From: a virus
Lineage: Duplodnaviria; Caudoviricetes
DNA: 64,000 nucleotides
IMG/VR virus record: IMGVR_UViG_3300005739_000025
Direction: 5' to 3' (one strand)
Position 1 is the first letter of the stretch, and the number at the start of each line of letters is the position of its first letter. Shown piece after piece: positions 18,010 through 48,948 of the stretch. Made by a program: the position numbers and the translations under genes. The notes beneath the pieces were generated by a model. The model made no database searches, had not been told where the DNA came from, and worked only from the letters and a program-made list of their open reading frames with translations.

Positions 18010-18056
18010 ACTTGCAATATTCTAACATTCCTTTATAAATATATGTACATTCAAAA

Positions 18057-18131
18057 ATGAAACTACATACATCAATTATGGATTCAGGTCGACCAAGTCT
18101 CTTTGGGAAATGGACAACCTGTATCTTTTAA
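18057..18131 (+). CDS. Leader peptide 1, MKLHTSIMDSGRPSLFGKWTTCIF
   Basis: 24 codons; its stop abuts the antiterminator 5' strand; codons match the array-1 anticodons. Confidence 0.7.
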   Translation: MKLHTSIMDSGRPSLFGKWTTCIF

Positions 18132-18159
18132 GCGGGTATATAGTAGAACTTTTTGTACC

Positions 18160-18191
18160 CGCTACCTAATTAAATAGGTAGCGTTTTTTTT
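18160..18191 (+). terminator. Intrinsic terminator
   Basis: CGCTACCTA-attaaa-TAGGTAGCG followed by T8. Confidence 0.85.
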
Positions 18192-18290
18192 AATCAATAA
18201 AGGCTTTATAGGAGGTGAGCCTGAATCACTGAAACAGCCACCGTGAAACCGTGGGTTCGATAAACGAAGAGGTGTATCGTTCTTTTTTTT

Positions 18291-18361
18291 GCGGGTATAT
18301 CATAGTGGTAATGAGTCTGCTTGCCAAGCAGATTAGAGGAGTTCGATTCTCCTTACCCGCT
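18291..18361 (+). tRNA. trnG: tRNA-Gly(GCC)
   Basis: GCGGGTA/TACCCGC acceptor, TCTGC-TTGCCAA-GCAGA, TTCGA T-loop. Confidence 0.93.
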
Positions 18362-18417
18362 TTTTTACAGTCCCGGGGTAATCCCTCTTAACAATGGATC
18401 CCGGGTAAGATTTCAAT

Positions 18418-18488
18418 GCCTGGTTAGTTTAATGGTAAAACGGTTGATTTGTAATCATCTGACGTCAGTTCGATTCTGTCACTGGGCT
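18418..18488 (+). tRNA. trnT: tRNA-Thr(TGT)
   Basis: Cloverleaf with anticodon loop TTTGTAA. Confidence 0.88.
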
Positions 18489-18501
18489 CATTTTTTTTTA
18501 T

Positions 18502-18577
18502 TGCGGAGTCGACAAGGGGTTAAGTCAGAAGTCTCATAAGCTTCTATGCGCTGGTTCGAATCCAGCCTCCGCAACCA
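18502..18577 (+). tRNA. trnM: tRNA-Met(CAT), initiator-like body lacking the three G-C anticodon pairs
   Basis: TGCGGAG/CTCCGCA-ACCA, A11-U24, loop CTCATAA. Confidence 0.85.
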
Positions 18578-18582
18578 TTTTT

Positions 18583-18666
18583 ATGTCCGCTCACAAGTGG
18601 GATTGTAGACGGTCTCCAAAACCGTTGTCGTTTGACTAAGGGGTTCGATTCCTCACGGACATGCCA
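18583..18666 (+). tRNA. trnW: tRNA-Trp(CCA) with extended variable arm
   Basis: ATGTCCG/CGGACAT-G-CCA, ACGGT-CTCCAAA-ACCGT, ~13-nt variable region. Confidence 0.75.
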
Positions 18667-18670
18667 TTTC

Positions 18671-18741
18671 GCGGTGGTAGTATAATAGTAGTACAGGAGT
18701 CTTCCAAACTTCGGGCCTCGGAGCGTAACCGTGTCACCGCA
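18671..18741 (+). tRNA. trnG: tRNA-Gly(TCC), non-canonical T-loop
   Basis: GCGGTGG/TCACCGC, loop CTTCCAA, T-loop AGCGTAA. Confidence 0.8.
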
Positions 18742-18775
18742 TTTGATTTTACGTTATAATATACTATAATAAATT

Positions 18776-19540
18776 ATGTTTTTTAAGAAAACCAAAACAC
18801 CCTATATAAAGTTTATTCCCATAGTCGAGGGTTTAAAAGAATTTATCCCCATAATACCAGCTAAAAGTTATTTACCTGATTGGTGGGAAAAAATAAACAT
18901 AAACGAAAATGTTAAATTTGCTAATAAACGTCCTGTTTCTACTGGTACAGTTAGAAAATGTCCAGGTATAATGGATTTTTTAAAAACAGGCTATATTATA
19001 CCCGCCTGGACTGATATATATATTACAGTTAAAGGTAGAGAAAGTATAGAATTTGAACTATCCGATAAAAGATTTAATGCTCGTATACACAGCAATGATC
19101 AATTTTTAAACTATATACCTGAACATTCAAAAACAGAGTATCTTTGGACTTTGAAGTTACAGAGTCCTTGGTTTATACAAACCCCACCAGGTTATAGTGT
19201 TATGTATATAAACCCGTATTATCACTTTAACAAATATTATGATATTGCCCCTGGTATACAAGATACAGATATATATCATGATTCCAACCAATTTTTGTTA
19301 ATTAAAAAAGAAGGAGAATTTTTAATAGAACGAGGTTCTCCACTTAGCATAGTTTTTCCTTTTAAACGAGAAGACTATGACTTTACGATGGAAGATTATG
19401 ATTTTTTTAAAACAGAGAAATATAAATCTAGAGAAGAATTTGTATCGTTTTCAAAATTTTCATCAATGCTTTCTTATAAAAAAGAACAACAAAAACAAAG
19501 AAAATGTCCTTTTTTATGGAATCATAGCTCAATCGGTTAG
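18776..19540 (+). CDS. Conserved phage protein (DUF6065-like), paralogue of 22109-22840; stop codon lies inside tRNA-Asp
   Basis: RKCPGIMDFLKTGYIIPAWTD, W.IQTPPGYS, PGIQDTD. Confidence 0.7.
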   Translation: MFFKKTKTPYIKFIPIVEGLKEFIPIIPAKSYLPDWWEKININENVKFANKRPVSTGTVRKCPGIMDFLKTGYIIPAWTDIYITVKGRESIEFELSDKRFNARIHSNDQFLNYIPEHSKTEYLWTLKLQSPWFIQTPPGYSVMYINPYYHFNKYYDIAPGIQDTDIYHDSNQFLLIKKEGEFLIERGSPLSIVFPFKREDYDFTMEDYDFFKTEKYKSREEFVSFSKFSSMLSYKKEQQKQRKCPFLWNHSSIG

Positions 19541-19591
19541 AGCACTGCCCTGTCACGGCAGGGGTTGCGAGTTCGAGTCTCGTTGATTCCG
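19518..19591 (+). tRNA. trnD: tRNA-Asp(GTC)
   Basis: GGAATCA/TGATTCC, loop CTGTCAC. Confidence 0.93.
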
Positions 19592-19596
19592 TGAAT

Positions 19597-19671
19597 GTCT
19601 GTGTAGTGTAATAGAGAGCACGAGAAGCTACGAACTTTTTAGTGTGGGTGCAAATCCTGCCATAGACACCA
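19597..19671 (+). tRNA. trnR: tRNA-Arg(ACG), non-canonical T-loop
   Basis: GTCTGTG/CATAGAC-ACCA, loop CTACGAA, T-loop TGCAAAT. Confidence 0.85.
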
Positions 19672-19678
19672 TTTTAAC

Positions 19679-19755
19679 GCTCTGGAAGCTAAAGTAGTCG
19701 AAGCGTTAGTCTGCAAAACTTTCATTAGTCGGTGCGAGTCCGACCCAGAGCTCCA
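19679..19755 (+). tRNA. trnC: tRNA-Cys(GCA), non-canonical T-loop
   Basis: GCTCTGG/CCAGAGC-TCCA, loop CTGCAAA (weak anticodon stem), T-loop TGCGAGT. Confidence 0.8.
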
Positions 19756-19762
19756 TTTTATA

Positions 19763-20023
19763 GATCTGGCCGTAGCAAATGATATCCAGATCAGGGTGTG
19801 TTCCCTTTGCCTGTTAGTGTGTTGGGGGTGCTCATCTGGGCTAGTCGAGCTAGGCTACATAAAGCTATGACGCTATGCATTAGTACAACACAGGCTATTG
19901 GACGGAAGTATCTGGCTCCAGGCCAGACTCCGTTAAGGAAGGGACAAAATCCGGAACAAAACCCTTCAGCACTAATAATTTAGTAGACCCGTTATGCCTC
20001 TTAGCAATGCACACTTAACGGGT
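19763..20023 (+). ncRNA. Unassigned ~260-nt structured RNA inside the tRNA array
   Basis: GC-rich, no credible ORF, at least six stems (GATCTGG/CCAGATC, GTGTTG/CAACAC, TCTGGC/GCCAGA, GAAGGG/CCCTTC, ACCCGTTA/TAACGGGT). Confidence 0.55.
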
Positions 20024-20028
20024 ATTTT

Positions 20029-20099
20029 CCCTCCTTAGTATAGTAGCATTACAATCGGTTGATAACCGATAGAACTAGGGGCAGTACCTAGAGGAGGGA
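20029..20099 (+). tRNA. trnI: tRNA-Ile(GAT), non-canonical T-loop
   Basis: CCCTCCT/AGGAGGG, ATCGG-TTGATAA-CCGAT, T-loop GGCAGTA. Confidence 0.85.
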
Positions 20100-20135
20100 C
20101 TATTGACTTTTCAAAAGGCGTGATATAATTACTTT

Positions 20136-20351
20136 ATGTACGAGACCGATCTCACATATAAGAGAAAAAAATATAAAATTAAAATAAAAACCATTTTCGA
20201 GGTAGGGGATGGTAAAGAACATTATGATTTAGAAGTCTCAACAAATAAAAGAATGTCTGGTAATGAATTTTTAGCGCTAAGAAAATATCTAGAAGATGAG
20301 GGTTATATAGAACAAGCAAGAATTTATAATGAGGAACTTTATGCCGATTAA
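20136..20351 (+). CDS. Hypothetical protein
   Basis: 71-aa ORF with a sigma70-like promoter upstream. Confidence 0.55.
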   Translation: MYETDLTYKRKKYKIKIKTIFEVGDGKEHYDLEVSTNKRMSGNEFLALRKYLEDEGYIEQARIYNEELYAD

Positions 20352-20497
20352 AGATTGGACAAAAATGACTAAAGATGAACTCTTATATACCTTTGAATGG
20401 GCACAAAAAATAGGTTTTCACTTTTTAGCTAAAGAAGTGTATAATCAATTAAAAGTTAAGGGTCTCATTAAAGAGGATAAGAGCGAAAAATAATTTA

Positions 20498-20569
20498 CGG
20501 GCACGAGGAAGATAGTAATCCGCCAGTTTTGGGAACTGGAAATACTCGGGGCGGAACCGAGGTGCCCGA
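20498..20569 (+). tRNA. trnP: tRNA-Pro(TGG), non-canonical T-loop
   Basis: CGGGCAC/GTGCCCG, CCAGT-TTTGGGA-ACTGG, T-loop GGCGGAA. Confidence 0.85.
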
Positions 20570-20572
20570 TTT

Positions 20573-20647
20573 CGCTGCTTAGCTGAGATAGATTAGCACG
20601 AGTCTGAAGAACTTGATAGGTTGGAGCGTTACCAACAGCAGCGGCCA
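20573..20647 (+). tRNA. trnF: tRNA-Phe(GAA), non-canonical T-loop
   Basis: CGCTGCT/AGCAGCG-G-CCA, loop CTGAAGA, T-loop AGCGTTA. Confidence 0.82.
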
Positions 20648-20650
20648 TTT

Positions 20651-20726
20651 TTGGAGCAACCACAAACCCACTGGTATTAGGCGTTGAGAGTAATTGGAAA
20701 GCGCTCTCGAGTAAGTCCTGCTCCAA
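20651..20726 (+). ncRNA. Unassigned tRNA-sized structured element A
   Basis: TTGGAGCA/TGCTCCAA closing stem, internal GAGAG/CTCTC, flanked by T-tracts; resembles 21552-21617. Confidence 0.45.
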
Positions 20727-20736
20727 TTTTTTAAAC

Positions 20737-20808
20737 GTGGCTCGTGGTGTAATAGAAGCATTAGAGATTGTGACTCTCTCGGTGAGGGGGCAGAACCCTT
20801 CGAGCCAA
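20737..20808 (+). tRNA. trnH: tRNA-His(GTG), non-canonical T-loop
   Basis: G-1, TGGCTCG/CGAGCCA, AGAGA-TTGTGAC-TCTCT, T-loop GGCAGAA. Confidence 0.85.
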
Positions 20809-20848
20809 TTTAGTAGAAAAAAACATTTTTTATTATATAATTCTTTTT

Positions 20849-21550
20849 ATGCGCATTTTATCTATTGATATGGATTTTATCACAACTAGATATGGGCAAT
20901 ATATTATAAACAATTATGATGAGGTTTATAATAAAAATGCCAATATGCATTGGGAAAATATTAGACTACAGTATGGTGACATACACGAGGATTTTAAACC
21001 TGATATTCAAAATTTAGTTTATATATTCGAAGTTTTTTCTAATGCGATTTTGAATAGTAAAAAAGTAGTTTTTAGCAATTATCATGACTGTATTCTAAAT
21101 GAATTAGATTTTAATAAAACTCATTCAATTATTAATATAGATCATCATCACGATTTGTTTTATTTTAACTCACAAAAAGAAAAAGTAGAAAGATATAGTG
21201 TCGTAAGTGATGCTGATTGGGTATGGTATCTATTAAAAAATAATTATTTGATGTCCTATACCTGGATTCACAACCCAACATCTTCTATGCCTAAAGATTC
21301 ATTTTATAGTGACGATAAAAGGATGATTTGTAAGTTTTTATTAAAAGGAGATTACACCTTTAAAAGCTATGATTTCGATTTAGTTTTTGTATGTTTAAGT
21401 CCTATTTATATAAGTCCTATACACTGGCATTATTTTGAACTGCTTAAAGTAATATATAAAAATACTCTAAAAAAAGATTTAATAATAAACAATAAAAGAT
21501 ACGAAATCGATTTTCAAATTGGTTTAAATAATTCTGGGTCATTCTTGTAA
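20849..21550 (+). CDS. UPF0489/arginase-like metalloprotein
   Basis: LSIDMDF, NIDHHHDL, DLVFVCLSP.Y motifs. Confidence 0.65.
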   Translation: MRILSIDMDFITTRYGQYIINNYDEVYNKNANMHWENIRLQYGDIHEDFKPDIQNLVYIFEVFSNAILNSKKVVFSNYHDCILNELDFNKTHSIINIDHHHDLFYFNSQKEKVERYSVVSDADWVWYLLKNNYLMSYTWIHNPTSSMPKDSFYSDDKRMICKFLLKGDYTFKSYDFDLVFVCLSPIYISPIHWHYFELLKVIYKNTLKKDLIINNKRYEIDFQIGLNNSGSFL

Positions 21551-21551
21551 A

Positions 21552-21617
21552 TGGAGCCGACATTCCAATGCTATTGGTTGAGATTAACCCTGGAGCGTCG
21601 CGGGTAAACTTGCTCCA
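21552..21617 (+). ncRNA. Unassigned structured element B (related to A)
   Basis: TGGAGC/GCTCCA closing stem; CGACATTCCA/TGGAGCGTCG; 3' CGRGTAAR segment shared with A. Confidence 0.45.
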
Positions 21618-21624
21618 CTTTTTT

Positions 21625-21708
21625 AGACACACTGACAGAAATGTCTTGGGCGCATGTGCCGCTACAGACTCGTAAGAGTTCATTGAAAGTTATAGCACAA
21701 GTGTGTCT
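21625..21708 (+). ncRNA. Unassigned multi-hairpin RNA
   Basis: 9-bp AGACACACT/AGTGTGTCT stem enclosing GACA-GAAA-TGTC and GACTC-GTAA-GAGTT GNRA hairpins. Confidence 0.55.
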
Positions 21709-21712
21709 TTTC

Positions 21713-21784
21713 GGGGAATTAGTTAAGTGGCTATAACTCCTGATTTGCATTCAGGTGTCACCGGTTCGACTCCGGTATTCTCCA
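21713..21784 (+). tRNA. trnA: tRNA-Ala(TGC)
   Basis: G3-U70 pair, CCTGA-TTTGCAT-TCAGG. Confidence 0.93.
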
Positions 21785-21791
21785 TACTTTA

Positions 21792-21873
21792 GCTCTAGTG
21801 GTGAAATTGGCAGACACGACAGACTTAGGATCTGTTGCTTTACGGCATGGGGGTTCGAGTCCCTCCTGGAGCA
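21792..21873 (+). tRNA. trnL: tRNA-Leu(TAG)
   Basis: Type II cloverleaf, loop CTTAGGA. Confidence 0.93.
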
Positions 21874-21879
21874 TATTTT

Positions 21880-21966
21880 GGAAGTGTGGCCGAGCGGTTT
21901 AAGGCAGAAGTTTACTAAACTTCCGAGGTATCCATTCCTCCGTGGGTTCGAATCCCACTGCTTCCA
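21880..21966 (+). tRNA. trnS: tRNA-Ser(ACT), unusual A34 anticodon
   Basis: Ser-type body with long variable arm; GAAGT-TTACTAA-ACTTC. Confidence 0.85.
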
Positions 21967-21982
21967 TATTAATAATTTTTAT

Positions 21983-22074
21983 GGGCAGATGGCTGAGTCC
22001 GGTCTAAGGCGTCCGACTTGAAATCGGAAGTGGGGGAAACCTCACCGTGGGTTCGAATCCTACTCTGCCCGCCA
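21983..22074 (+). tRNA. trnS: tRNA-Ser(TGA)
   Basis: Type II cloverleaf, loop CTTGAAA, G73-CCA. Confidence 0.95.
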
Positions 22075-22108
22075 TTGAATTTTAAAAATTATAAGTTAAA
22101 ATAATATA

Positions 22109-22840
22109 ATGTTTAATTTGTTTAAAAAGGAAATAGAATTTTTTCCAACAACTTTAGAAATAGATAAAGTAGCTCCTATTGTTCCAGCTAGCAAATTTCT
22201 CCCAAAATGGTGGACGGATATTGATCCAAATAAACATGTAAATTTAGTAAATAATGTACCTGTTATAAGAGGCAATATTAAAAAATGTCCAGGTGTATCA
22301 GATTTTTTAACTAAGGGTTTTATATTACCCGCCTGGACAGATTTTTATTTTTGCTATGAAAATGGTAAAATGAAAAAAATCTCATCGTTACAATCCCACG
22401 GAATAATACACCAACCAGACACATCATTTATTGATTTTTTACCAGATAATATAAAATTTAAAAAACCCATTTCATATAAATTATTAACCCCCTGGCTTAT
22501 CAAAACCCCTCCCGGCTATAGCAGTTTAATTTTAAACCCAACATTTCATTTTAACGATAATTTCGACACTATGCCCGGTATACTCGATACCGACATTTTT
22601 CATACCCTATCTATTGAAATTCTAGTTAAAGAATCAAAAACTTTTACTATACCTTTTAACACTCCATTATGTATAATAGTTCCTTTTAAAAGAAATAAAT
22701 TTAAATATAAAATTAATTTAAATAAAGCAGTAATGGAGAAATTGTCTTCTCTTTCAAATCTTATATCTTTTGCAAAATTTTCTTCTAGCGCTATGTATAA
22801 TTATGTAAGAAGATCAAAATGCCCTTTTAATAATAAATAA
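22109..22840 (+). CDS. Conserved phage protein (DUF6065-like), paralogue of 18776-19540
   Basis: KKCPGVSDFLTKGFILPAWTD, W.IKTPPGYS, PGILDTD, C-terminal KCPF. Confidence 0.7.
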   Translation: MFNLFKKEIEFFPTTLEIDKVAPIVPASKFLPKWWTDIDPNKHVNLVNNVPVIRGNIKKCPGVSDFLTKGFILPAWTDFYFCYENGKMKKISSLQSHGIIHQPDTSFIDFLPDNIKFKKPISYKLLTPWLIKTPPGYSSLILNPTFHFNDNFDTMPGILDTDIFHTLSIEILVKESKTFTIPFNTPLCIIVPFKRNKFKYKINLNKAVMEKLSSLSNLISFAKFSSSAMYNYVRRSKCPFNNK

Positions 22841-22844
22841 TTTT

Positions 22845-23102
22845 ATGAATTTTGAAATTTTAATAAATGACTTATTAAAAAAGAATTATAAAATTAATGA
22901 GCAGTTAGCTAAAGGTAAAACTTTAGAAGATATATCTAAAGAGACAGAAACATCAAAAGAAATATTAAATAAAGAACTTAAAAAAGGAATAGAAATAGAA
23001 AAAGAACATACACCATCAGAAAAAAAAGCTAAAACCATAGCTAAAGATCATCTTATTGAAAATCCTAAATATTATACTAAATTAAAGAAAGTAGGATTAT
23101 AG
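22845..23102 (+). CDS. DUF5661-like small protein
   Basis: ELKKGIEIEKEH...IAKDHL.E.PKYYTKL. Confidence 0.65.
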   Translation: MNFEILINDLLKKNYKINEQLAKGKTLEDISKETETSKEILNKELKKGIEIEKEHTPSEKKAKTIAKDHLIENPKYYTKLKKVGL

Positions 23103-23176
23103 ACCCTGTAGTGTAATGCAAAGCACGTTATGCATATAGCATAAAGATAGAGGTTAGAATCCTTTCAGGGTCGCCA
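23102..23176 (+). pseudogene. tRNA-like gene with collapsed anticodon loop (no reliable anticodon)
   Basis: GACCCTG/CAGGGTC-G-CCA; anticodon arm TTATGC-ATATA-GCATAA, A at position 33; T-loop TTAGAAT. Confidence 0.7.
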
Positions 23177-23902
23177 TTAATTGTTTTTAGTCGCAAAATT
23201 ATTCCACCTTTCTGTATTACTTAATTCCTGCTTGGAGTTTAACTCTACATGTCCATCAAAATAAGCCACTACGGCTTTATTATTATACCTATAATCTACC
23301 TCCCCGACAGCTCCTCTAGTTTCAGGACCCGCCACATCAAAACACCCCCTATGTTCTGCTCCTTCCATTTTACTAATCGCAAATACAACTAGTTTAGAAG
23401 GTTCATTAACCTGAGTGATATTAGTTACTACTGATTTATTGCCTCTATCTGGTGAAACAGGAGTACCGTACTTACCCCCAACATAAGTACCATTCATACC
23501 AAATGTTGTAAAAACTGTTACTAGATAAGAATACATACTATCATCTGGAGGAGCAGCTTTCTGATTGTTAACCATTAAGATGTTAATACTATAATCTATA
23601 TAAGGCGCAAGTCTCCATGGCCATCTTTTTGCAGCATGGGACATGACTGGCTTACCTTTATCGTCTAATACTTTACCTGGTTTAGGGTCCATAGCTTTAA
23701 TTAATCGCCCTCCATTATCAGCTGCGTAAGCATGAAACCCTGCCATTAATGCTCTACCTGCATGAACCTCTCTTCCCTTTTCAGCAGATTTTATATAACT
23801 AGAATAACCTGAAAAACCAATAGCAGCTAAAATGGTTATAACTGCTATAGATACTAATAGTTCAATTAACGTAAAAGCCCTTGCATATCTTAAAAAGTTC
23901 AT
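23177..23902 (-). CDS. Prepilin-type N-terminal cleavage/methylation protein with H-X9-DG-type C-terminus
   Basis: AFTLIELLVSIAVITILAAI; YRYNNKAVVAYFDGHVE. Confidence 0.9.
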   Translation of the reverse strand: MNFLRYARAFTLIELLVSIAVITILAAIGFSGYSSYIKSAEKGREVHAGRALMAGFHAYAADNGGRLIKAMDPKPGKVLDDKGKPVMSHAAKRWPWRLAPYIDYSINILMVNNQKAAPPDDSMYSYLVTVFTTFGMNGTYVGGKYGTPVSPDRGNKSVVTNITQVNEPSKLVVFAISKMEGAEHRGCFDVAGPETRGAVGEVDYRYNNKAVVAYFDGHVELNSKQELSNTERWNNFATKNN

Positions 23903-23918
23903 ATATTATATATATACT

Positions 23919-24680
23919 ATGAAAATATTATTTCTAGGAATTACATATTTTTTTACTTTAATTTCTATTCTACACTCTCAAATTATTACTGTAAATATGG
24001 GAGGAACTACTAGTTTTTCTTCTTGGTCTAATATAAATTCTTTTAACTATTCAGGCTACGGCTCATTTCCAGGAAACACTCCATGGCCTGCACCTATAAG
24101 AGCTACACAAGGTTCAACAAATTCAACTTTAAATAGAGTTACTGGTTCCCCAACAGGTGGAGGACCATTTCTAGCATCAGAATCAATATATTTTGGCAAT
24201 TTCAGTCAAATTCCAAATGCATTAGGAGGAACACTTAGACTGTCTAATTCTATTTCTTTAACAAATATTAAAACTCTTGTACTGCAAATACAAATAGGAG
24301 AAGCAACAGGGTATGATTTCTTTACACCTACTGGTTTTCCTAAACTCTCTTTAAACGGAATAACAAATTTTGCTGCTTACACCAATCTTGTTAATAGATA
24401 TCAAAATGGTACATTTCCTAGTCCTGAAACAGGGTTAGATGAACCCGTATATGTTAATACATGGGCGTACCAATGGAAAATTACAAATGCATCAGTAAAC
24501 AGCTATTTTGTAGATTTTAGCGCGGTAACACACGCCCAGGTCTACAACATCAGATGGGATAGCTCTTCCATGGCATATAACACGCCAGTTATTCCTGAAC
24601 CATCTACTATTGGTTTGCTGGCCTTTAGCGCTGCTGGGTTTGCCGTTTACATTTATAGAAAGAGAAAAAGAAGTAAATAG
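23919..24680 (+). CDS. PEP-CTERM sorting-domain surface protein
   Basis: Start reassigned to ATG 23919 (signal peptide MKILFLGITYFF); C-terminal VIPEPSTIGLLAFSAAGFAVYIYRKRKRSK. Confidence 0.9.
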   Translation: MKILFLGITYFFTLISILHSQIITVNMGGTTSFSSWSNINSFNYSGYGSFPGNTPWPAPIRATQGSTNSTLNRVTGSPTGGGPFLASESIYFGNFSQIPNALGGTLRLSNSISLTNIKTLVLQIQIGEATGYDFFTPTGFPKLSLNGITNFAAYTNLVNRYQNGTFPSPETGLDEPVYVNTWAYQWKITNASVNSYFVDFSAVTHAQVYNIRWDSSSMAYNTPVIPEPSTIGLLAFSAAGFAVYIYRKRKRSK

Positions 24681-24699
24681 CAGCATAATAAATAATTAA

Positions 24700-25113
24700 A
24701 TGAATTGGCTACCATTAGTAATTTTGGTAGCCTTTTTTGTTTTTATTATACCCAATTATAAAGAATTTGAAAAGCCGGAATTAAAAATTTTACCCGATGG
24801 ATGTGTAGTATATTCTATATATCATAAAATGGCTTTAGAGGCTAATGAAAAATTAGAACCTTATCTCTGGTCTAGAGTGCTCGCTATACACTTTTATAAC
24901 AAAGTAGGTCACGCTGTTAATGTATTTGTCTACAAGAATAATACCTTTGTTTATAACCCAGGACTTGGTACTTATCCTATATATGAGAGACCTATATATG
25001 ATCCATTACAATTAGCGGAAATAATTTTTCCAGATACACCTATTAGAAGAGCGTATTTTTTAGAACCCACATTGTTATTGCAATATCAAAAAGAATATCA
25101 TATTATAGAGTAA
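24700..25113 (+). CDS. Secreted papain/transglutaminase-like protein (Cys-His)
   Basis: Signal-like N-terminus; LPDGCVVY...GHAVNVF...YNP; similar to 51717-52094. Confidence 0.45.
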   Translation: MNWLPLVILVAFFVFIIPNYKEFEKPELKILPDGCVVYSIYHKMALEANEKLEPYLWSRVLAIHFYNKVGHAVNVFVYKNNTFVYNPGLGTYPIYERPIYDPLQLAEIIFPDTPIRRAYFLEPTLLLQYQKEYHIIE

Positions 25114-25409: not shown

Positions 25410-25434
25410 ATAGGTATTTTAAATATAATACACC

Positions 25435-26066: not shown

Positions 26067-26125
26067 AACATTTATATTTATACGAGCACTTCTAATAAAT
26101 GAACAGGTCTGAATTAATAATTTAC

Positions 26126-42414: not shown

Positions 42415-42603
42415 ATGTATATTGTTAAAGTAGGAAAAGAAGAAGGGGCTCTTGAAAAAGCTCTTAAAAGGTTGAAATCTAAGATAATAGAAGATGGTCT
42501 TATGGAAGAATTATATAGACTTAGAGCTTTTGAGACCCCCAAGGAAAAGAAAAAGCGAAAACTTAGAATTAGATCTAAAGTATTTACTCGAAATAAATCT
42601 TGA
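42415..42603 (+). CDS. rpsU: Ribosomal protein bS21
   Basis: LEKALKRLKSK...GLMEEL...AFETPKEKKKRK. Confidence 0.85.
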   Translation: MYIVKVGKEEGALEKALKRLKSKIIEDGLMEELYRLRAFETPKEKKKRKLRIRSKVFTRNKS

Positions 42604-42634: not shown

Positions 42635-43471
42635 ATGAAAATTGACCTAGAAAAAACAAGCTTCATTAATGTAGAGGAAGTTGAAATTCCTTCCTCTTTT
42701 TACAATCGATTTAAGACTGAAAACAATCTTATCGATACTTTGTTCGGAGGCGGTGGCTTCCTCCCCGGTACTTCTTTCGCTCTAGCCGGGGGCCCCGGTT
42801 CTGGTAAATCTACTTTTCTTCTCCAGATTGGTGGTATTCTAGCTTCTCAAGGCAAGAACGTAGCTTATATTTCTGGCGAAGAGAGTGTTGTTCAAATCTC
42901 GTTTAACTGTAAGCGAATGAACATTAAGGGGGTCAAGGTGTCTAATATGACAGATGTTGACGAAATTTGTCAACAACTTGAAAAGAATAAATTTGACTTT
43001 GTTGTTATTGACTCTTTCCCGACTATCACTGCTAAGAGGGCTAAGTCGTTCAAGAAGCGCGAAGAGTATGTTATTAGTCGCTTGTGCAGTACTGCTAAGA
43101 AGACAGATACAGTCATTGGTTTTATTCAGCACGTTACTAAACAAGGCAATTATAAAGGGTCAACTCTTCTTCCTCACTCTGTTGATATGACCATTAAACT
43201 TACAAAGAACGAGGACGATCCTCAGAATCTTAACCTTCGTGACTTTATGGTCACTAAGAATCGTTTTGGGTCTAATGCGTTTATATCGCTCAATCTCACT
43301 CAACATGGATTTGATCTTGACAAAGACGTTAAAGCTAATGACCCTCTTGAAGGTGTGAGAGCTATTACTATGCAGCAAGCGGTTAGTATGTTCGGAACAT
43401 ACTACAAAGCCCATAAGATTCTTCAGCAGAAGGGTTTTGTTAAGAAGAGTAAGAAGTTTGTTAGAAACTAA
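42635..43471 (+). CDS. RadA/Sms-like RecA-family ATPase (no Zn finger or Lon-like domain)
   Basis: GGPGSGKST, YISGEES, VVIDS, HVTKQG.YKGST.LPHSVD, KNRFG. Confidence 0.8.
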   Translation: MKIDLEKTSFINVEEVEIPSSFYNRFKTENNLIDTLFGGGGFLPGTSFALAGGPGSGKSTFLLQIGGILASQGKNVAYISGEESVVQISFNCKRMNIKGVKVSNMTDVDEICQQLEKNKFDFVVIDSFPTITAKRAKSFKKREEYVISRLCSTAKKTDTVIGFIQHVTKQGNYKGSTLLPHSVDMTIKLTKNEDDPQNLNLRDFMVTKNRFGSNAFISLNLTQHGFDLDKDVKANDPLEGVRAITMQQAVSMFGTYYKAHKILQQKGFVKKSKKFVRN

Positions 43472-43941: not shown

Positions 43942-44027
43942 GCCCGAGTGGTGGAATGGCAGACACAACGGACTTAAAATCCGTTGGCTTCACGGCCGTG
44001 TGGGTTCGAGTCCCACCTCGGGTACCA
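43942..44027 (+). tRNA. trnL: tRNA-Leu(TAA)
   Basis: Type II cloverleaf, loop CTTAAAA, ACCA end; own GTTCT-N2-TATAAT promoter. Confidence 0.95.
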
Positions 44028-44048: not shown

Positions 44049-44102
44049 ATGACACTTTACATACAAAATAAACAATATAGAATAGAACAGCTCCTGGGCT
44101 GA
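44049..44102 (+). CDS. Leader peptide 2, MTLYIQNKQYRIEQLLG
   Basis: 17 codons; an 11-codon run matches the array-2 anticodons. Confidence 0.7.
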   Translation: MTLYIQNKQYRIEQLLG

Positions 44103-44123
44103 GTTCTAACGTTGTTTACTTGG

Positions 44124-44156
44124 AACCCCGGCCTGTATAACAAGCCGGGGTTTTTT
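44124..44156 (+). terminator. Intrinsic terminator
   Basis: AACCCCGGC...GCCGGGGTT followed by a T-tract. Confidence 0.9.
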
Positions 44157-44172
44157 ATTGATCTTTGACAAT

Positions 44173-44340: not shown

Positions 44341-44428
44341 AACATGTATATTTATTGAAAAGATAAAGTAAATAAAGTTGAAACAAGTTTAAGATTTCTT
44401 AATACTTGTAGACATCAGTATTAAATTA

Positions 44429-44512
44429 GGGAGTCCGGTAAAGTTGGAGAGTTACTGTGGACTGTAAATCCACCGCCACTTGGCTAAATAGGTTCGAATC
44501 CTTTGGCTCCCA
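44429..44512 (+). tRNA. trnY: tRNA-Tyr(GTA)
   Basis: GTGGA-CTGTAAA-TCCAC with long variable arm. Confidence 0.9.
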
Positions 44513-44517
44513 TTTAT

Positions 44518-45519
44518 ATGAAAACTGCTAAAATTATAGGTTGTGGGTTATCTGGCATTACTTCAGCCGTTCTCTTAAAGGAGAAAGATTATAAGGTAAC
44601 TATATTTGAACAGAGAAACCATATTGGAGGCAATTGCTTTGATCAAGAAATAAACGGAGTTAACGTACACAAATACGGGCCTCATATCTTTCATACTAAT
44701 GATGAAGAAGTATTTGCTTTTCTTAGCAGGTTTACAGGTTGGTTTCCATTTAAGAACCAGCCATTAGGTATAACTGATATAGGTCCTATTCCCTTACCAT
44801 ATAGTCGTAAGACAGTTAAAGTTATAGGTAGAGAGTTATCTCAAGAAGAAATTGTAGATTTGATCTTTAAAGGGTATTCAGAAAAACAATGGGGTGTTCC
44901 ATTTGATCAGATACCAAAGTCTATTACAAATAGAATACCTAAAACAAAAGATTGTGACGATCCTACATGGTATGAAGGAGAGAAGTATCAGTGTCTTCCT
45001 TATCCAAGCTATACAAAGATGATGGAAAATATGTTAGAGGGAATAGAGGTTAGACTTGGTTGTTCTGAAAACGATTGGAAAGAATATAATGCTGATCTAA
45101 CAGTCTATACAGGAAAAATAGATCAATACTTTAACTTCTGTTTTGGTAAACTTCCATATAGATCATTGGATTTTGATTTTAAAATCAATTCTAATAGATT
45201 AGATAACTCTATTTTAAATTACAATCAAAAAGAAAAACCTTATACCAGGGTAGTAGATTATGGTTATTTTACATACAATTACGATAAACCTGAAACAGTA
45301 GTTGTTGCAGAATACCCAAAAGAATGCGGTGATAGTAATATTCCTTACTATCCAATCCCTTTTGGTAATGGAATAGAAATATATAACAAATACAAAGAGC
45401 TTGCAGATAAAGAAGAAAATACTATATTTGTAGGAAGATTAGCTACCTATACATATCTGGATATGTGGATGGCAGTTAGGCAAGCAATGTTGAAAATTAA
45501 AAATTACCTCGTGGTGTAA
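44518..45519 (+). CDS. glf: UDP-galactopyranose mutase; stop codon inside tRNA-Gln
   Basis: Start reassigned to 44518; GCGLSG, E.RNHIGGN, HKYGPHIFHT, PYYP, FVGRLATY.Y.DM. Confidence 0.92.
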   Translation: MKTAKIIGCGLSGITSAVLLKEKDYKVTIFEQRNHIGGNCFDQEINGVNVHKYGPHIFHTNDEEVFAFLSRFTGWFPFKNQPLGITDIGPIPLPYSRKTVKVIGRELSQEEIVDLIFKGYSEKQWGVPFDQIPKSITNRIPKTKDCDDPTWYEGEKYQCLPYPSYTKMMENMLEGIEVRLGCSENDWKEYNADLTVYTGKIDQYFNFCFGKLPYRSLDFDFKINSNRLDNSILNYNQKEKPYTRVVDYGYFTYNYDKPETVVVAEYPKECGDSNIPYYPIPFGNGIEIYNKYKELADKEENTIFVGRLATYTYLDMWMAVRQAMLKIKNYLVV

Positions 45520-45578
45520 TGGTAACACAGAAGCCTTTGGAGCTTTTATTCATAGTTCGAGTCTATGCGAGGTAGCCA
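45505..45578 (+). tRNA. trnQ: tRNA-Gln(TTG)
   Basis: TACCTCG/CGAGGTA-G-CCA, loop CTTTGGA. Confidence 0.92.
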
Positions 45579-45882
45579 TAAATAATTTTTGTGGAATATT
45601 TTAAAACTATCTTTAAACTAATAGGCGAAATGTTTGAAGAGCTGTTTGGAAAATGAATAAACAATCATTAATTATGGAGCTTGCTAAGCTTCAATTAGAA
45701 TACCAACAAGCTGTCAACTCTTTTAGTAACAAAGGGGTTTTTATAGACTTAGAGTCCCGCACACAAAAGGCTTATGGTTCGCTGATGAAGCTTGGAATGA
45801 ACCCTAAAGATATTAAAGAAGAAGTAGAAGAAATGATAAGAAATAGCTGGTAAGTTTTAAAGGTTCCTATATACTATAGATA

Positions 45883-46068
45883 ATGAAATTCGAAAACGCA
45901 TTGCTTATTTTTATAGCCATTTATATTATTATAGATTCTATTCTTTCAGTACTAGATTCTAATAAGATTAATAATCTTCAAACACAAATCGATGAGCTTA
46001 AAATTATTGTTGATCAGAAGTTTTTATCTTCGATGGTTTTAGACACATACAATTTAATGCCCCGATAG
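45883..46068 (+). CDS. Small membrane-anchored protein; stop codon inside tRNA-Ile(TAT)
   Basis: N-terminal TM helix; GTTCC-N2-TATACT promoter upstream. Confidence 0.55.
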   Translation: MKFENALLIFIAIYIIIDSILSVLDSNKINNLQTQIDELKIIVDQKFLSSMVLDTYNLMPR

Positions 46069-46151
46069 TTTAATGGCAGAACACAGGTCTTATACACCTG
46101 AAGCTGGGAGACGCTGGCGTAGTGAAGGTTCGAGTCCTTCTCGGGGTACCA
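46059..46151 (+). tRNA. trnI: tRNA-Ile(TAT) with long variable arm
   Basis: GCCCCGA/TCGGGGT-ACCA, CAGGT-CTTATAC-ACCTG, 23-nt extra arm. Confidence 0.82.
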
Positions 46152-46157
46152 AAAATT

Positions 46158-46298
46158 ATGGCACAGAAAACTAAAAATAACATTATAGGAAAAAGTTCTT
46201 TGGGAACTCATTACACTCAAGCAAAGAACGTTCGTCAGTTCTATAATAAGAATACTAGAGCTCAACGTTCTGATGCTGGTAAACGTAGGAAACCTTAA
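46158..46298 (+). CDS. 46-aa basic RSDAG-motif peptide 1
   Basis: MAQKTK...RAQRSDAGKRRKP. Confidence 0.7.
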   Translation: MAQKTKNNIIGKSSLGTHYTQAKNVRQFYNKNTRAQRSDAGKRRKP

Positions 46299-46299
46299 T

Positions 46300-46434
46300 A
46301 TGGCTAAAAATAAAATTGTAGGCGATTGGGGTGCATGGAGTGCTGGTAATAAGCAGACAGCGGCTAGCCTTAGAAAAGTTGGTATTAAAGCTCGTGCGCG
46401 AAGGTCTGACGCTGGTAAAAAGAGAAAGCCTTAA
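46300..46434 (+). CDS. 44-aa basic RSDAG-motif peptide 2
   Basis: MAKNK...RARRSDAGKKRKP. Confidence 0.7.
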   Translation: MAKNKIVGDWGAWSAGNKQTAASLRKVGIKARARRSDAGKKRKP

Positions 46435-46435
46435 T

Positions 46436-46573
46436 ATGATTATTCAAGCCTGGGGACATAAAAACGCATCTAAAAATGCCGCAAAACAAGCTAGAGCATT
46501 TGGTTATAAGGCGCGTGCAAAAAGATCTGATGCAGGTTACAAGCGCATGCGCAAGCCTAGACCGCCAAAATAA
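46436..46573 (+). CDS. 45-aa basic RSDAG-motif peptide 3
   Basis: MIIQAWG...RAKRSDAGYKRMRKP. Confidence 0.7.
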   Translation: MIIQAWGHKNASKNAAKQARAFGYKARAKRSDAGYKRMRKPRPPK

Positions 46574-46579
46574 AATTAC

Positions 46580-46652
46580 GGCCTTGTAGCTCAATGGTTA
46601 GAGCAGTCGGCTCATAATCGATTGGTTGTAGGTTCGAATCCTACCGGGGCCA
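46580..46652 (+). tRNA. trnI: tRNA-Ile2(CAT) (lysidine type; Met not excluded)
   Basis: GGCCTTG/CGGGGCC-A body resembling ileX, loop CTCATAA. Confidence 0.85.
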
Positions 46653-46656
46653 CAAT

Positions 46657-46777
46657 TTGGCTAGGCGCATGCTCCAAAGGATCCAAATGCTACGGAGACT
46701 CCCGCGCTAGAGACGATGCAATGTTTGCGCAAACAACATCTAATTCTAGAGGAAGGAACTTAAGACCTTCTAGCCAA
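46657..46777 (+). ncRNA. Unassigned structured RNA
   Basis: TTGGCTAG/CTAGCCAA enclosing GCAT/ATGC, TGTTTG/CAAACA and GAAGG/CCTTC stems. Confidence 0.5.
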
Positions 46778-46783
46778 TATTTT

Positions 46784-46857
46784 TTCTTACTTGCATACTC
46801 GGGGTCTTCCATGTAATATTGGAGCTAGTCTAACCCATAAGGTGTTGCAAGTAAGAA
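46784..46857 (+). ncRNA. Unassigned structured RNA
   Basis: Perfect 12-bp TTCTTACTTGCA/TGCAAGTAAGAA closing stem. Confidence 0.45.
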
Positions 46858-46868
46858 CTTTTTTCGTA

Positions 46869-46940
46869 GGGTCGGTAGCTTAATGGTAAAGCAGCTGGCT
46901 TTTAACCAGTTGAGTGCGAGTTCGACTCTCGCCCGACCCA
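46869..46940 (+). tRNA. trnK: tRNA-Lys(TTT)
   Basis: GGGTCGG/CCGACCC, loop CTTTTAA. Confidence 0.93.
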
Positions 46941-46983
46941 TACCAATATCCATATAAGGCACTACTTAAGAATAAATAATAGT

Positions 46984-47400
46984 ATGAAACTTCATAATAA
47001 ACAAAAAGGTAATATAGGAGAAGCTGCTACTGCTCTTTTTTTGCTCAAAAAAGGCTACCCAGTGTTTAAAGAGCTAGGAGATTTATCTAAAGTAGATTTG
47101 TTGACAATTATTAATAACAGATGTTATAAAATACAAGTTAAAAATGCATCACGCGAAACTAACAAAGGTTCATTTACTTTTAATACTATTAAATATGGAC
47201 CAAATTATTCTTACAAATATAAAAAAGAAGATGTAGATATTTTTGCAGTCTATATTTCAACCATAGATGAATTAGTATTTTTGGGTTGGGGTGATTTAAA
47301 AAATGATACCCTTAATATTAGATATAAAAAAAGCTTGAACAACCAAAGTAAAAATATAAACTGGTATGAAGATTTTAAAAATTTTGATAGATTAATTTAA
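46984..47400 (+). CDS. PD-(D/E)XK homing-type endonuclease (PDDEXK_5-like)
   Basis: KGNIGE...VDL...YKIQVK...YKKEDVDIFAVY. Confidence 0.8.
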   Translation: MKLHNKQKGNIGEAATALFLLKKGYPVFKELGDLSKVDLLTIINNRCYKIQVKNASRETNKGSFTFNTIKYGPNYSYKYKKEDVDIFAVYISTIDELVFLGWGDLKNDTLNIRYKKSLNNQSKNINWYEDFKNFDRLI

Positions 47401-47435
47401 GGTATTGGTTCTGGGTTCGAGTCCCACCCGTTCCA
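47396..47435 (+). pseudogene. Orphan 3' half of a tRNA (anticodon to acceptor)
   Basis: TTTAA-GGTAT-TGGTT-CTGGG-TTCGAGT-CCCAC-CCGTTCC-A. Confidence 0.7.
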
Positions 47436-47446
47436 TAAATATTCAT

Positions 47447-47839
47447 ATGCCAGTTTGTACATCTTTTGATTTTATATCAGTAAAAAGCGCAGGACAAGGA
47501 TTGTTTAATGGATACTATGTTCCTATTTCCGGATTTAAAACTACAGAAGATGGGCTAGAGAGATATAGTCATTATGTTTTAAATTTCTTTCAAAATGAAG
47601 GATATCCTAGATTAGAAGTAACAAATTTATCAGGTACACACTATGTGTGGGCTTTAAAATCTGACCCATCTACAATAGTTTATAGAACAAATGCAGTTAC
47701 AACTTCTACAACTATTTCCCAATGTCCTAATGGTCTAACCTGGATGTGGGGCCCCAATACTTCTTCAGGTTCGATACCTTCCTCTTCAGGTAAAACAAAT
47801 AAAAGTATTGCAGCAGAAATGGCAGCTCTCATTTCTTAG
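47447..47839 (+). CDS. Hypothetical late protein
   Basis: Start reassigned to ATG 47447 behind CATAAATA. Confidence 0.55.
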   Translation: MPVCTSFDFISVKSAGQGLFNGYYVPISGFKTTEDGLERYSHYVLNFFQNEGYPRLEVTNLSGTHYVWALKSDPSTIVYRTNAVTTSTTISQCPNGLTWMWGPNTSSGSIPSSSGKTNKSIAAEMAALIS

Positions 47840-47873
47840 TTGATAAAATACCAATTTCTTTTAAACTAATTTT

Positions 47874-48158
47874 ATGATTTATGAAAATTATGGCATTGTT
47901 AGAACTGATGCCCCAGATCAACAGCTTATCAATTTAATTGAGTCCATGAGCAAATGTGTTAGAGAGACCGAAGGACACTTTTCTTACAGCAGATGGAATA
48001 GACTCGTGGAGATTTATTATTATCTTAGATATGGTCTTTATGGAGATGCATGGATTAAGATTAATGATTTAAGAGATGACTTAAGATGGAGAATTCCCGA
48101 GGACGTCTATCACACATTAAAAGACATTTGCAAGGGAATGAATGTTCGAATAGCATAA
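47874..48158 (+). CDS. Hypothetical protein
   Basis: 94-aa ORF. Confidence 0.55.
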   Translation: MIYENYGIVRTDAPDQQLINLIESMSKCVRETEGHFSYSRWNRLVEIYYYLRYGLYGDAWIKINDLRDDLRWRIPEDVYHTLKDICKGMNVRIA

Positions 48159-48164
48159 TTTAAA

Positions 48165-48239
48165 ACCTAGGTAGCTCAATGGTAGAGCTAGCGGCTGTTA
48201 ACCGCTCGGTTGTAGGTTCGAATCCTACCCTAGGTGCCA
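48165..48239 (+). tRNA. trnN: tRNA-Asn(GTT)
   Basis: AGCGG-CTGTTAA-CCGCT, G-CCA end. Confidence 0.93.
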
Positions 48240-48243
48240 TTAC

Positions 48244-48319
48244 GCGTTGGTAGCTCAGTGGATAGAGCAGTAGCCTTCTAAGCTATTGGTCGCAGGTTCG
48301 ATCCCTGCCCGACGCGCCA
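48244..48319 (+). tRNA. trnR: tRNA-Arg(TCT)
   Basis: GTAGC-CTTCTAA-GCTAT, G-CCA end. Confidence 0.95.
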
Positions 48320-48723
48320 TTTTTACTTGCTCTTTAATGAAGAGCTTATAAACTAAAATATATGAATAAATTAATTACCTTTCCAGATGAAAGCAAGTTT
48401 GAACTTATTTTTTGCGTGGAACATCCCAATCAATCGTTTCATGTTAAATATAAAGATAACAATATAGTTCAAGAGCTATTTGTTCCAAAAGATTTTATTT
48501 CTAATGAAAAGTAATTGGAAGGATATTAATATAGGAGACTTTTTTATTCCTGATTTAGTCTTAAACGGAGATACATTTTTGTATCAAAAGATTGACGAAC
48601 AAAAGCATAATGGCTATAATTGTATTTTGTTAAATACCGGGGAGCTTTGCAATATTTTTATTAATCCAACCTTACAAGAGCATTTTGTTAAAGTCGAAGT
48701 AACATTTAATTTAAGGGAGTTTA

Positions 48724-48870
48724 ATGGCTAGTAGAATAATTAAAGGATCAAATCATAGATACGAGACTGCTTCGTGGCTTAGAAAGCAAATCAATGCTGG
48801 TGTACCTAAGGGTTGTAAGATAAAGTTTAGAGCACAACGCAAAGACGCAGGTACCAAGCGAAGTAAATAA
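48724..48870 (+). CDS. 48-aa basic RKDAG-motif peptide 4
   Basis: MASRIIKG...RAQRKDAGTKRSK. Confidence 0.65.
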   Translation: MASRIIKGSNHRYETASWLRKQINAGVPKGCKIKFRAQRKDAGTKRSK

Positions 48871-48876
48871 TATTAC

Positions 48877-48948
48877 GTCGCCATCGTCTAACGGTTAGGA
48901 CACATGGTTTTCATCCATGCAATCGGAGTTCGATTCTCCGTGGCGATG
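48877..48948 (+). tRNA. trnE: tRNA-Glu(TTC)
   Basis: CATGG-TTTTCAT-CCATG. Confidence 0.93.

Follow-up and report, generated by a model that had tools for sequence, protein, structure and literature searches.

Two short open reading frames (ORFs) were found upstream of the two tRNA gene clusters in a 64,000-nucleotide stretch (the window) of the Caudoviricetes record IMGVR_UViG_3300005739_000025, and the codons of each match the tRNAs encoded in the cluster that follows it. Judged from the sequence and from modeled RNA folds, both ORFs are probably the leader peptides of ribosome-mediated attenuators of the trp type, which would provide on-demand expression of each tRNA set. Both short ORFs, their terminators, and the two-way division of the tRNA genes recur in phage contigs from other metagenomes at 62 to 92% protein identity.

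Codon content and conservation of the leaders

By strict wobble rules, 19 of the 23 codons after the ATG of leader 1 (Table 1) are read by tRNAs of cluster 1, and 15 of the 17 classes of that cluster are covered. The remaining codons are two AAA codons and two codons (CTC and ACC) that require relaxed wobble, in keeping with a preliminary description of this DNA, which had reported leader 1 to be nearly free of codons read by cluster 2 (here called set-2 codons). Set-2 codons make up 35% of the coding codons of the phage, and the binomial probability of finding two or fewer of them among 23 is 0.004. The leader 1 homologues contain one to three set-2 codons among 21 to 23, compared with 35% in phage genes, and the single set-2 codon that is kept is codon 2 (AAA or AAT); A-rich second codons favor translation initiation. 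A combination of at least 15 cluster 1 classes with at most two set-2 codons was found in 24 of 535,163 stop-free 22-codon segments, 17 of which lie on six leader 1 ORFs and 7 at three unrelated places.

The core of leader 2, codons 4 to 14, consists of 11 consecutive codons that are all read by cluster 2 tRNAs (Tyr, Ile-AUA, Gln, Asn, Lys, Arg-AGR, and Glu). The leader was earlier said to contain essentially only its own codons, which overstates the case, as 5 of its 16 sense codons are foreign to cluster 2 and 11 are its own; the reported absence of TTA from both leaders was confirmed. All seven classes are found in the core of 7 of the 10 distinct leader 2 sequences, and ten set-2 codons drawn according to phage codon usage would include all seven in only 6% of draws. 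Both strands and all frames of 1.52 Mb of related phage DNA contain 55 runs in which 10 or more set-2 codons follow one another; 7 of these runs span all seven classes, and 6 of the 7 are leader 2 homologues. Dinucleotide-preserving shuffles of the A-rich core alone gave P values of 0.0003 to 0.0016 for the joint occurrence of exclusively set-2 codons and all seven classes. Base composition as the sole cause of the codon matches, a possibility raised beforehand in the preliminary description, was rejected on the basis of the A-rich-core shuffles and the counts of set-2 runs in the 1.52 Mb, since the matches survive both the shuffles and the scans of related DNA. The signal is specific to the reading frame: the other two frames contain seven to nine set-2 codons in leader 1, and three to six classes plus stops in leader 2. 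In a blind scan of the tRNA clusters of the window and its relatives, these ORFs ranked as the top codon-matched short ORFs.

Relatives from freshwater and other aquatic metagenomes were obtained with the RadA-like ATPase encoded at 42635 to 43471 (L050, L052 to L058, and L060; 69 to 92% protein identity to the window), with the DUF932 protein encoded at 26714 to 27748 (L062 to L066), and, among viral contigs, with the conserved DNA motif 3' of leader 1 (L067 to L071); a search of viral contigs with the leader 2 DNA pattern gave no match. Leader 1 with its hairpin A, terminator, and cluster 1 was found in 8 phage contigs, its homologues in L063, L064, and L067 to L071 being ORFs of 22 to 24 sense codons (counting the ATG). 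Leader 2 with its hairpin 1, terminator, and cluster 2 is represented by 10 distinct sequences and forms an ORF of 16 to 17 codons in L050, L052 to L058, L060, L063, and L064. The ATG, the frame, and the stop are retained in all 18 leader sequences, lengths differ by whole codons only, and no copy contains an in-frame stop despite the A/T-rich sequence. Each cluster is thus preceded, as had been proposed, by a conserved short ORF and terminator whose codons match that cluster.

In both leaders the codon order shifts while the codon set stays. The leader 2 cores read YIQNKQYRIEQ in the window and L057, YKQNIQIREN in L053, YIQNKQIREN in L060, YYIQNEYNRK in L063 and L064, and NYIQREQRIN in L052, which has no Lys codon. 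In leader 1, TGG-CCA-CGA of L064 corresponds to CGA-CCA-TGG in L070, and CGA-CCA precedes CTC-TTT in the window and follows it in L063. Covariation of RNA stems accounts for part of the codon changes in leader 2, so that both constraints, the codon set and the RNA stem, act on it.

The division of tRNA identities is likewise retained in diverged relatives. Both clusters, with unchanged membership, were found in L063 and L064, where only some 5 kb separates them; cluster 1 was also found in L069 and L070 and in part in L067, L068, and L071, and cluster 2 was found in full in L052 and L053 and in part in L058, L059, L060, and L065. The set and order of cluster 2 are shared by the window, L052, L053, and L063. 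More distant phages (L006, L032, and L049) contain mixed tRNA arrays, and no leader-like ORF was found upstream of the tRNA groups of L006, L018, and L049. A possible parallel was found at positions 7031 to 7157 of L032, where a 19-codon ORF (MGKYSSNSFRQANPFIWLVC) with codons of both sets lies upstream of one mixed 18-tRNA array. The UUGGGUU that follows this ORF could base-pair with AACCCAG, the 5' arm of a terminator that ends in T8, and the 15 different residues in 19 of the ORF have a probability of 0.018 given the proteins of these phages. L032 may therefore be an independent case of the same leader design, on evidence that is suggestive and not decisive.

Predicted RNA switches and competing readings

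Folds were predicted with the RNA segment covered by the ribosome masked, and leader 2 was folded as nascent RNA, at the stage before synthesis of the 3' arm of its terminator. The stop codon of leader 1 abuts GCGGG(T/A), and hairpin A forms by pairing of this sequence with a CCCGC about 20 nucleotides downstream, which also serves as the 5' arm of the terminator. A second GCGGG, ahead of a T run, provides the 3' arm of the terminator. These three elements (GCGGG/CCCGC/GCGGG) are invariant in 7 to 8 of the 8 leader 1 sequences, and the distal stem of the terminator covaries in relatives. The terminator is predicted to form in all 8 when the ribosome occupies either the stop codon or the codon before it. 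With a ribosome stalled near codon 19, hairpin A displaces the full terminator in the folds of L063, L064, L069, L070, and L071, and in the window it forms and shortens the terminator stem. When no ribosome is present, the 5' arm of hairpin A and its loop region are predicted to be taken up by the 5' portion of the ORF, which leaves the terminator free; this pairing is backed by one compensatory change (ACA/UGU in L064 versus ACG/CGU in L070).

The consensus fold of leader 2 consists of hairpin 1, whose 5' arm is formed by codons 6 to 13, and directly thereafter the terminator, with compensatory changes at seven pairs, five of them in the outer stem of hairpin 1. Segment 2, the invariant GGGCTGAGTTCT that includes the stop codon, can pair either with segment 1 or with the 5' arm of the terminator. 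Hairpin 1 is predicted to form in the absence of a ribosome, and the terminator arm is then mostly free in 7 of the 10 sequences. When the A site is stalled at codons 5 to 12, a 2:3 helix is predicted in all 10, at -10 to -22 kcal/mol, and takes up 5 to 7 nucleotides of the terminator 5' arm, and with the ribosome at the stop codon it is not formed (0 to -3.5 kcal/mol). The matched codons 4 to 14 lie on segment 1, where stalling frees segment 2. The gating proposed earlier is thus consistent with the predicted folds, in which each leader shows the arrangement of alternative hairpins expected of a ribosome-mediated attenuator. Neither leader region matched any Rfam family, and no T-box riboswitch was detected across either with Rfam at E values up to 1.

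Within the limits of modeled structures, every sequence-level feature that defines a trp-type attenuator is present in both leaders, with the difference that the leader codons report on the regulated product by breadth and not by runs of one codon. From these features we infer that the leaders are translated, that their translation is coupled to transcription, and that a regulatory response follows. Each leader would present to the ribosome the codons decoded by the tRNAs encoded downstream. Quick decoding would bring the ribosome to the stop codon, where it would mask the antiterminator segment and allow the terminator to form. Where the pool of matching tRNAs is short, decoding would be slow and the ribosome would stall within the leader, the antiterminator would form, and RNA polymerase would read through into the tRNA cluster. 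The outcome would be self-limiting, on-demand expression of two complementary tRNA sets.

Several observations weigh against this reading. Most tRNA classes have just one or two leader codons, in contrast to the runs of regulatory codons of classical leaders, and so few codons per tRNA would sense anything short of severe depletion only weakly. The codon match is not perfect throughout: the Ala and Val tRNAs have no codon in leader 1 of the window, and in leader 2 a Lys codon is missing from L052 and a Tyr codon from L050 and L058, although the corresponding tRNAs are present or expected in these relatives. The leader 1 peptides are fairly alike in six relatives (MNHTxTSSDAGCS...), so part of the codon inventory is inherited and not reselected. 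The content of the tRNA clusters hardly varies within the clade, and small differences are not tracked by the leader, as in L063, which has a Thr(GGT) tRNA and a leader without ACC or ACT. Equilibrium folds of L067 and L068 retain the terminator even with a stalled ribosome. Clusters without leaders occur in L059, L065, and L049, and L059 and L065 retain the tRNA division although leaderless. Promoter-like sites inside the clusters, as frequent as in shuffled sequences or only moderately more so, imply that the gates may govern only proximal tRNAs. In the window, a 270-nucleotide insert with a minus-strand ORF separates the leader 2 terminator from tRNA-Tyr. A point in favor of the attenuator reading is that the tRNA-Tyr gene starts about 15 to 30 nucleotides 3' of the conserved post-terminator box (Table 1) in L050, L054 to L056, L058, L060, L063, and L064, which leaves scant space for a separate sigma-70-type promoter in these eight relatives; the TTGACA of the box was rejected as a -35 element because it is too near tRNA-Tyr in relatives.

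If the attenuators are real, their selected function could be counter-defense, as the preliminary description suggested: the two leaders would sense cleavage of host tRNAs by anticodon nucleases and turn on replacement tRNAs, with cluster 2 as the main nuclease-target channel. Cluster 2 contains the Lys, Glu, Gln, Tyr, Asn, and Arg(TCT) tRNAs, which are frequent targets of PrrC, RloC, PARIS, colicin E5/D-type, and retron-associated nucleases. Furthermore, one codon per tRNA fits an all-or-none loss better than a graded shortage, and several of the phage tRNAs have unusual loops. No sequence feature links the system to a nuclease, however, the oddities noted in the tRNAs being unusual T-loops and one A at position 33. 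The colicin E5 targets His and Asp are placed in cluster 1, which has a gate of the same kind even though the majority of its tRNAs are not known to be cleaved by such nucleases. As the division separates A-rich codons, 35% of phage codon usage, from the rest, the matching of supply to codon demand explains it equally well, and we consider counter-defense an unlikely selected function.

Alternatively, real attenuators might sense general translation capacity or the coupling of transcription and translation, the codon match being a by-product of composition. The switch geometry would react to any delay of the ribosome, one codon per tRNA gives weak specificity, and the peptide sequence of leader 1 is partly conserved. 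What makes such a general sensor quite unlikely is the existence of two leaders with complementary codon sets, each matching its own cluster: leader 1 avoids set-2 codons, the core of leader 2 uses them exclusively, and the codon sets persist through rearrangements.

It is distinctly improbable, in our view, that the two elements are untranslated structured RNAs, such as small RNAs, the 3' ends of upstream units, or processing signals, that carry ordinary terminators and match the tRNAs by chance. The strong RNA structure with its covariation, which explains several codon changes in leader 2, would agree with this, as would the promoter-like hexamers that overlap leader 2 and the lack of a Shine-Dalgarno sequence. 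Against it stand an ORF kept with its ATG and stop in 18 of 18 sequences, with lengths that vary by whole codons only, a frame-specific codon signal at a P value of about 1e-3 after shuffling of the A-rich core, and a stop codon that abuts or sits within the switch segment in both leaders. Regarding translation starts, a loose test found a Shine-Dalgarno-like motif at just 9 of the 64 gene starts in the window. The T4-late-promoter-like motif TATAAATA, which relatives retain fully or nearly so upstream of leader 1, occurs in 14 copies in the window; it is not enriched overall, but most copies lie 5 to 45 nucleotides upstream of start codons in the correct orientation, and many gene starts are about 5 to 20 nucleotides from a similar motif. 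This arrangement suggests near-leaderless late mRNAs in this phage, and the leader starts therefore resemble ordinary starts. In most relatives leader 2 begins about 8 to 10 nucleotides past the stop of a small lipoprotein-like ORF, which would allow translational coupling.

Finally, small functional peptides with ordinary terminators and no regulatory link to the tRNAs are very improbable: six relatives resemble one another in the N-terminal half of leader 1, but residue order is not conserved across the clade, placement directly upstream of the tRNA clusters is, and the overlap of antiterminator and terminator would be left unexplained. The reading that we prefer thus remains that of two trp-type attenuators, each responding to the supply of its own tRNA set.

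Genomic setting of the two tRNA clusters

The window is AT-rich (about 33% G+C) and derives from an uncultured, distantly T4-like freshwater phage. It encodes a portal protein, only about 32% identical to cyanomyovirus g20, a tail fiber protein, and a helicase. The closest cultured relatives share about 31 to 33% protein identity, and at the DNA level no near relative was found in the phage genome collection, where the only matches were tRNA fragments. Proteins of the window recur on a 244-kb contig. Among sequencing runs, the region was found only as small shares of DNA runs and in no RNA run. No relatives were found for the 187-amino-acid gene 5' of leader 1, and none were found in viral contigs for the 407-amino-acid gene that lies farther 5'. 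A ribosomal protein bS21 is encoded at 42415 to 42603 (Pfam E value, 1.7e-09), beside the ATPase gene in most relatives examined.

Table 1. Positions of the leaders, their RNA elements, and the tRNA genes in the window (folds are predicted; tRNA genes are given by their first position)
Feature	Coordinates	Strand	Remarks
T4-late-promoter-like motif TATAAATA	18034-18041	+	15 nt 5' of the leader 1 ATG
Leader 1 ORF	18057-18131	+	Peptide MKLHTSIMDSGRPSLFGKWTTCIF, then stop; 24 sense codons
Antiterminator hairpin A (GCGGGTA...TACCCGC)	18132-18162	+	Begins directly after the leader 1 stop codon
Leader 1 intrinsic terminator	18160-18191	+	9-bp stem and T8; shares bases of its 5' arm with the 3' arm of hairpin A
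Conserved structured RNA, about 90 nt	18198-18290	+	Contains AGGAGGTGA(G/A)CCTGAATCAC; between leader 1 terminator and tRNA-Gly
tRNA cluster 1	18291-26199	+	18 genes with interspersed ORFs; ARAGORN, Rfam, sequence reading
Cluster 1, first five genes	Gly(GCC) 18291, Thr(TGT) 18418, Met 18502, Trp(CCA, 84 nt) 18583, Gly(TCC) 18671		
Cluster 1, next four genes	Asp 19517, Arg(ACG) 19597, Cys 19679, Ile(GAT) 20029		
Cluster 1, next three genes	Pro(TGG) 20498, Phe(GAA) 20573, His(GTG) 20738		
Cluster 1, last six genes	Ala 21713, Leu(TAG) 21792, Ser(ACT) 21879, Ser(TGA) 21983, Ile(TAT)-like 23102, Val(TAC) 26126		
tRNA-Leu(TAA)	43942-44027	+	5' of leader 2 and hence outside its gate; same arrangement in L057
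Leader 2 ORF	44049-44102	+	Peptide MTLYIQNKQYRIEQLLG, then stop; codons 4 to 14 cover all 7 cluster 2 classes
Hairpin 1 (segments 1:2)	44069-44118	+	5' arm within the ORF; 3' arm has the stop codon in invariant GGGCTGAGTTCT
Predicted antiterminator (segments 2:3)	44096-44134	+	GGGCUG/GUUCUAA with UUGGAAC/CGGCCU of the terminator 5' arm
Leader 2 intrinsic terminator	44122-44160	+	GC-rich stem and T6; compensatory changes, e.g., CCCCGGCC versus CCCTGGCTC
Conserved box GATCTTTGA(C/T)A	44160-44170	+	Directly 3' of the terminator; near-invariant
Small ORF, 55 amino acids	44173-44340	-	Between leader 2 terminator and tRNA-Tyr
tRNA cluster 2	44429-48949	+	8 genes with interspersed ORFs; ARAGORN, Rfam
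Cluster 2, first four genes	Tyr 44429, Gln 45505, Ile(TAT) 46059, Met/Ile2(CAT) 46580		
Cluster 2, last four genes	Lys 46869, Asn 48165, Arg(TCT) 48244, Glu 48877		
Strong terminator-like hairpin	49552-49577	+	11 bp and T run; 3' of the last cluster 2 gene; possible end of the cluster 2 unit

A total of 27 tRNA genes was found (18 in cluster 1, 8 in cluster 2, and Leu(TAA)), one more than the 26 counted earlier. ARAGORN with default settings detected 21, Rfam added Gly(TCC), Cys, and Ile(GAT), and relaxed ARAGORN added Pro(TGG) and Phe(GAA). His(GTG), at 20738 to 20808, was read from the sequence and is 100% identical to the copy in L063 (Rfam tRNA, 41.2 bits). The groups, previously described as arrays, are loose clusters and not tight ones, as protein genes (HNH-like, pilin-like, and UDP-galactopyranose mutase-like) interrupt both. 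The two-way division holds except for one gene, the Ile(TAT)-like tRNA at 23102 to 23176 in cluster 1, an AUA reader with an A at position 33 that breaks the partition and is absent from the relatives. Leu(TAA) does lie outside both gates, and the putative early promoter assigned to it matches the consensus at only 9 of 12 positions. In this AT-rich DNA, scans for sigma-70 promoters were uninformative, with 58 sites where 37 were expected and 21 where 23 were.

Several of the tRNA genes have unusual features. Five tRNAs (Gly-TCC at 18671 to 18741, Ile-GAT at 20029 to 20099, Pro and Phe within 20498 to 20647, and His) have noncanonical T-loops (GGCAGUA, AGCGUAA, GGCGGAA, and similar) in place of TTCGAAT. 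Default ARAGORN misses these five, and the same oddity is kept in L063 and L064. The 84-nucleotide tRNA at 18583 to 18666, with anticodon CCA and a long variable arm, is scored highest by Rfam as tRNA-Sec-like, at a subthreshold 37.6 bits; L063 has a Trp tRNA of 75 nucleotides and L070 one of 84. The tRNA-Ser at 21879 to 21967 has the anticodon ACT (A34), as in L064, L069, and L070, and the anticodon is GCT in L062, L063, and L071. In L050 (4613 to 4855), the anticodon loop of tRNA-Leu(TAA) is, by eye, apparently split by an insert of about 190 nucleotides, possibly a group I intron, that is followed by an HNH endonuclease ORF. In the related viral contig L042 (4143 to 4543), ARAGORN detected a gene for a tmRNA whose tag peptide has 31 residues and ends in ...RRLALAA.

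Other conserved elements lie among the tRNA genes. The structured RNA between the leader 1 terminator and tRNA-Gly, which has no Rfam match, is present in L063, L064, and L067 to L071, and its hairpins covary (CCAC/GTGG versus CCGC/GCGG, plus a GNRA-capped stem). Its AGGAGGTGA is a strong complement of the anti-Shine-Dalgarno sequence, in a phage whose genes lack Shine-Dalgarno sequences. A highly conserved, noncoding, G+C-richer stretch between tRNA-Cys and tRNA-Ile(GAT), at 19753 to 20023 (L063, 4600 to 4860), ends in a hairpin that scores 35.1 bits as Rfam abiF RNA, just short of the 37-bit threshold, and may be an unrecognized structured RNA. Between tRNA-Phe and tRNA-His, a 76-nucleotide element (20652 to 20727) has an 8-bp acceptor-like terminal stem and was recognized as a tRNA by neither ARAGORN nor Rfam. 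Homologues of 54 to 58 amino acids of the minus-strand ORF that follows the leader 2 terminator were found at the same place in L052, L053, and L057 and not in L050, L054 to L056, L058, L060, L063, or L064. The UDP-galactopyranose mutase-like gene (44503 to 45519; Pfam GLF; E value, 5e-54) lies between tRNA-Tyr and tRNA-Gln, and its homologues (L001 to L048) are widespread in related phages, mostly without nearby tRNAs.

Relation to known attenuators and significance

The mechanism proposed here is classical attenuation; what appears to be new, judging from full-text searches, is that it would act on phage tRNA genes and that one leader would sample 7 to 15 tRNA species encoded downstream. As in the trpL, hisL, pheL, and leuL attenuators, a short ORF is combined with an intrinsic terminator and a mutually exclusive antiterminator, and the position of the ribosome would select the fold. 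The full 1:2, 2:3, and 3:4 layout of these systems is predicted for leader 2 and an equivalent one for leader 1. In contrast to the trpL type, which regulates biosynthetic enzymes in response to amino acid supply through runs of one codon, the regulated genes here would be tRNA genes, the proposed signal is tRNA abundance or integrity, and one or two codons are present for each of 7 to 15 tRNA species. A Shine-Dalgarno sequence is also lacking, and the near-leaderless start of leader 1 follows a putative late-type promoter. The multivalent attenuators of ilvGMEDA (Ile, Leu, and Val) and thr (Thr and Ile) likewise sense several aminoacyl-tRNAs with one leader, but they cover two to three amino acids with several codons each, whereas leader 2 covers 7 classes and leader 1 covers 12 to 15, each with a downstream gene. 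Feedback of tRNA charging status on genes of the decoding apparatus is known from pheST, with its pheM leader, and from T-boxes; pheM controls a synthetase, however, in place of tRNA genes, and T-boxes work without an ORF, through direct binding of uncharged tRNA.

The tRNA clusters of the window resemble those of T4 and T5, in which small ORFs, homing endonucleases, and stable small RNAs are interspersed, and the roles proposed for phage tRNAs of that type are codon usage compensation and escape from tRNA-targeting defenses. To our knowledge, little is understood about how phages regulate their own tRNA genes, and full-text literature searches returned no leader-peptide attenuator described upstream of phage tRNA genes. 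The debate on why phages carry tRNAs, whether for codon compensation, against decay of the host pool, or against tRNA-cleaving defenses, has so far been missing such a regulatory handle. A leader that mirrors the codons of its tRNA cluster would be a direct sensor of decoding capacity and would extend classical attenuation from amino acid supply to tRNA supply. The sequence rule of a short ORF and terminator switch whose codons match the downstream anticodons would locate such sensors and predict the tRNAs that a phage treats as limiting, and the leader design would be a compact natural part for codon-specific biosensors.

It is possible, and we suggest this only tentatively, that codon-matched leader attenuators form a widespread, hitherto undescribed class of phage regulators that read which part of the tRNA pool is failing and switch on only the matching set. 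If so, the failure could stem from a poor match to the host, from decay after host shut-off, or from cleavage by anticodon nucleases, and the tRNA genes would be divided into two clusters because each sensor needs a codon channel of its own.

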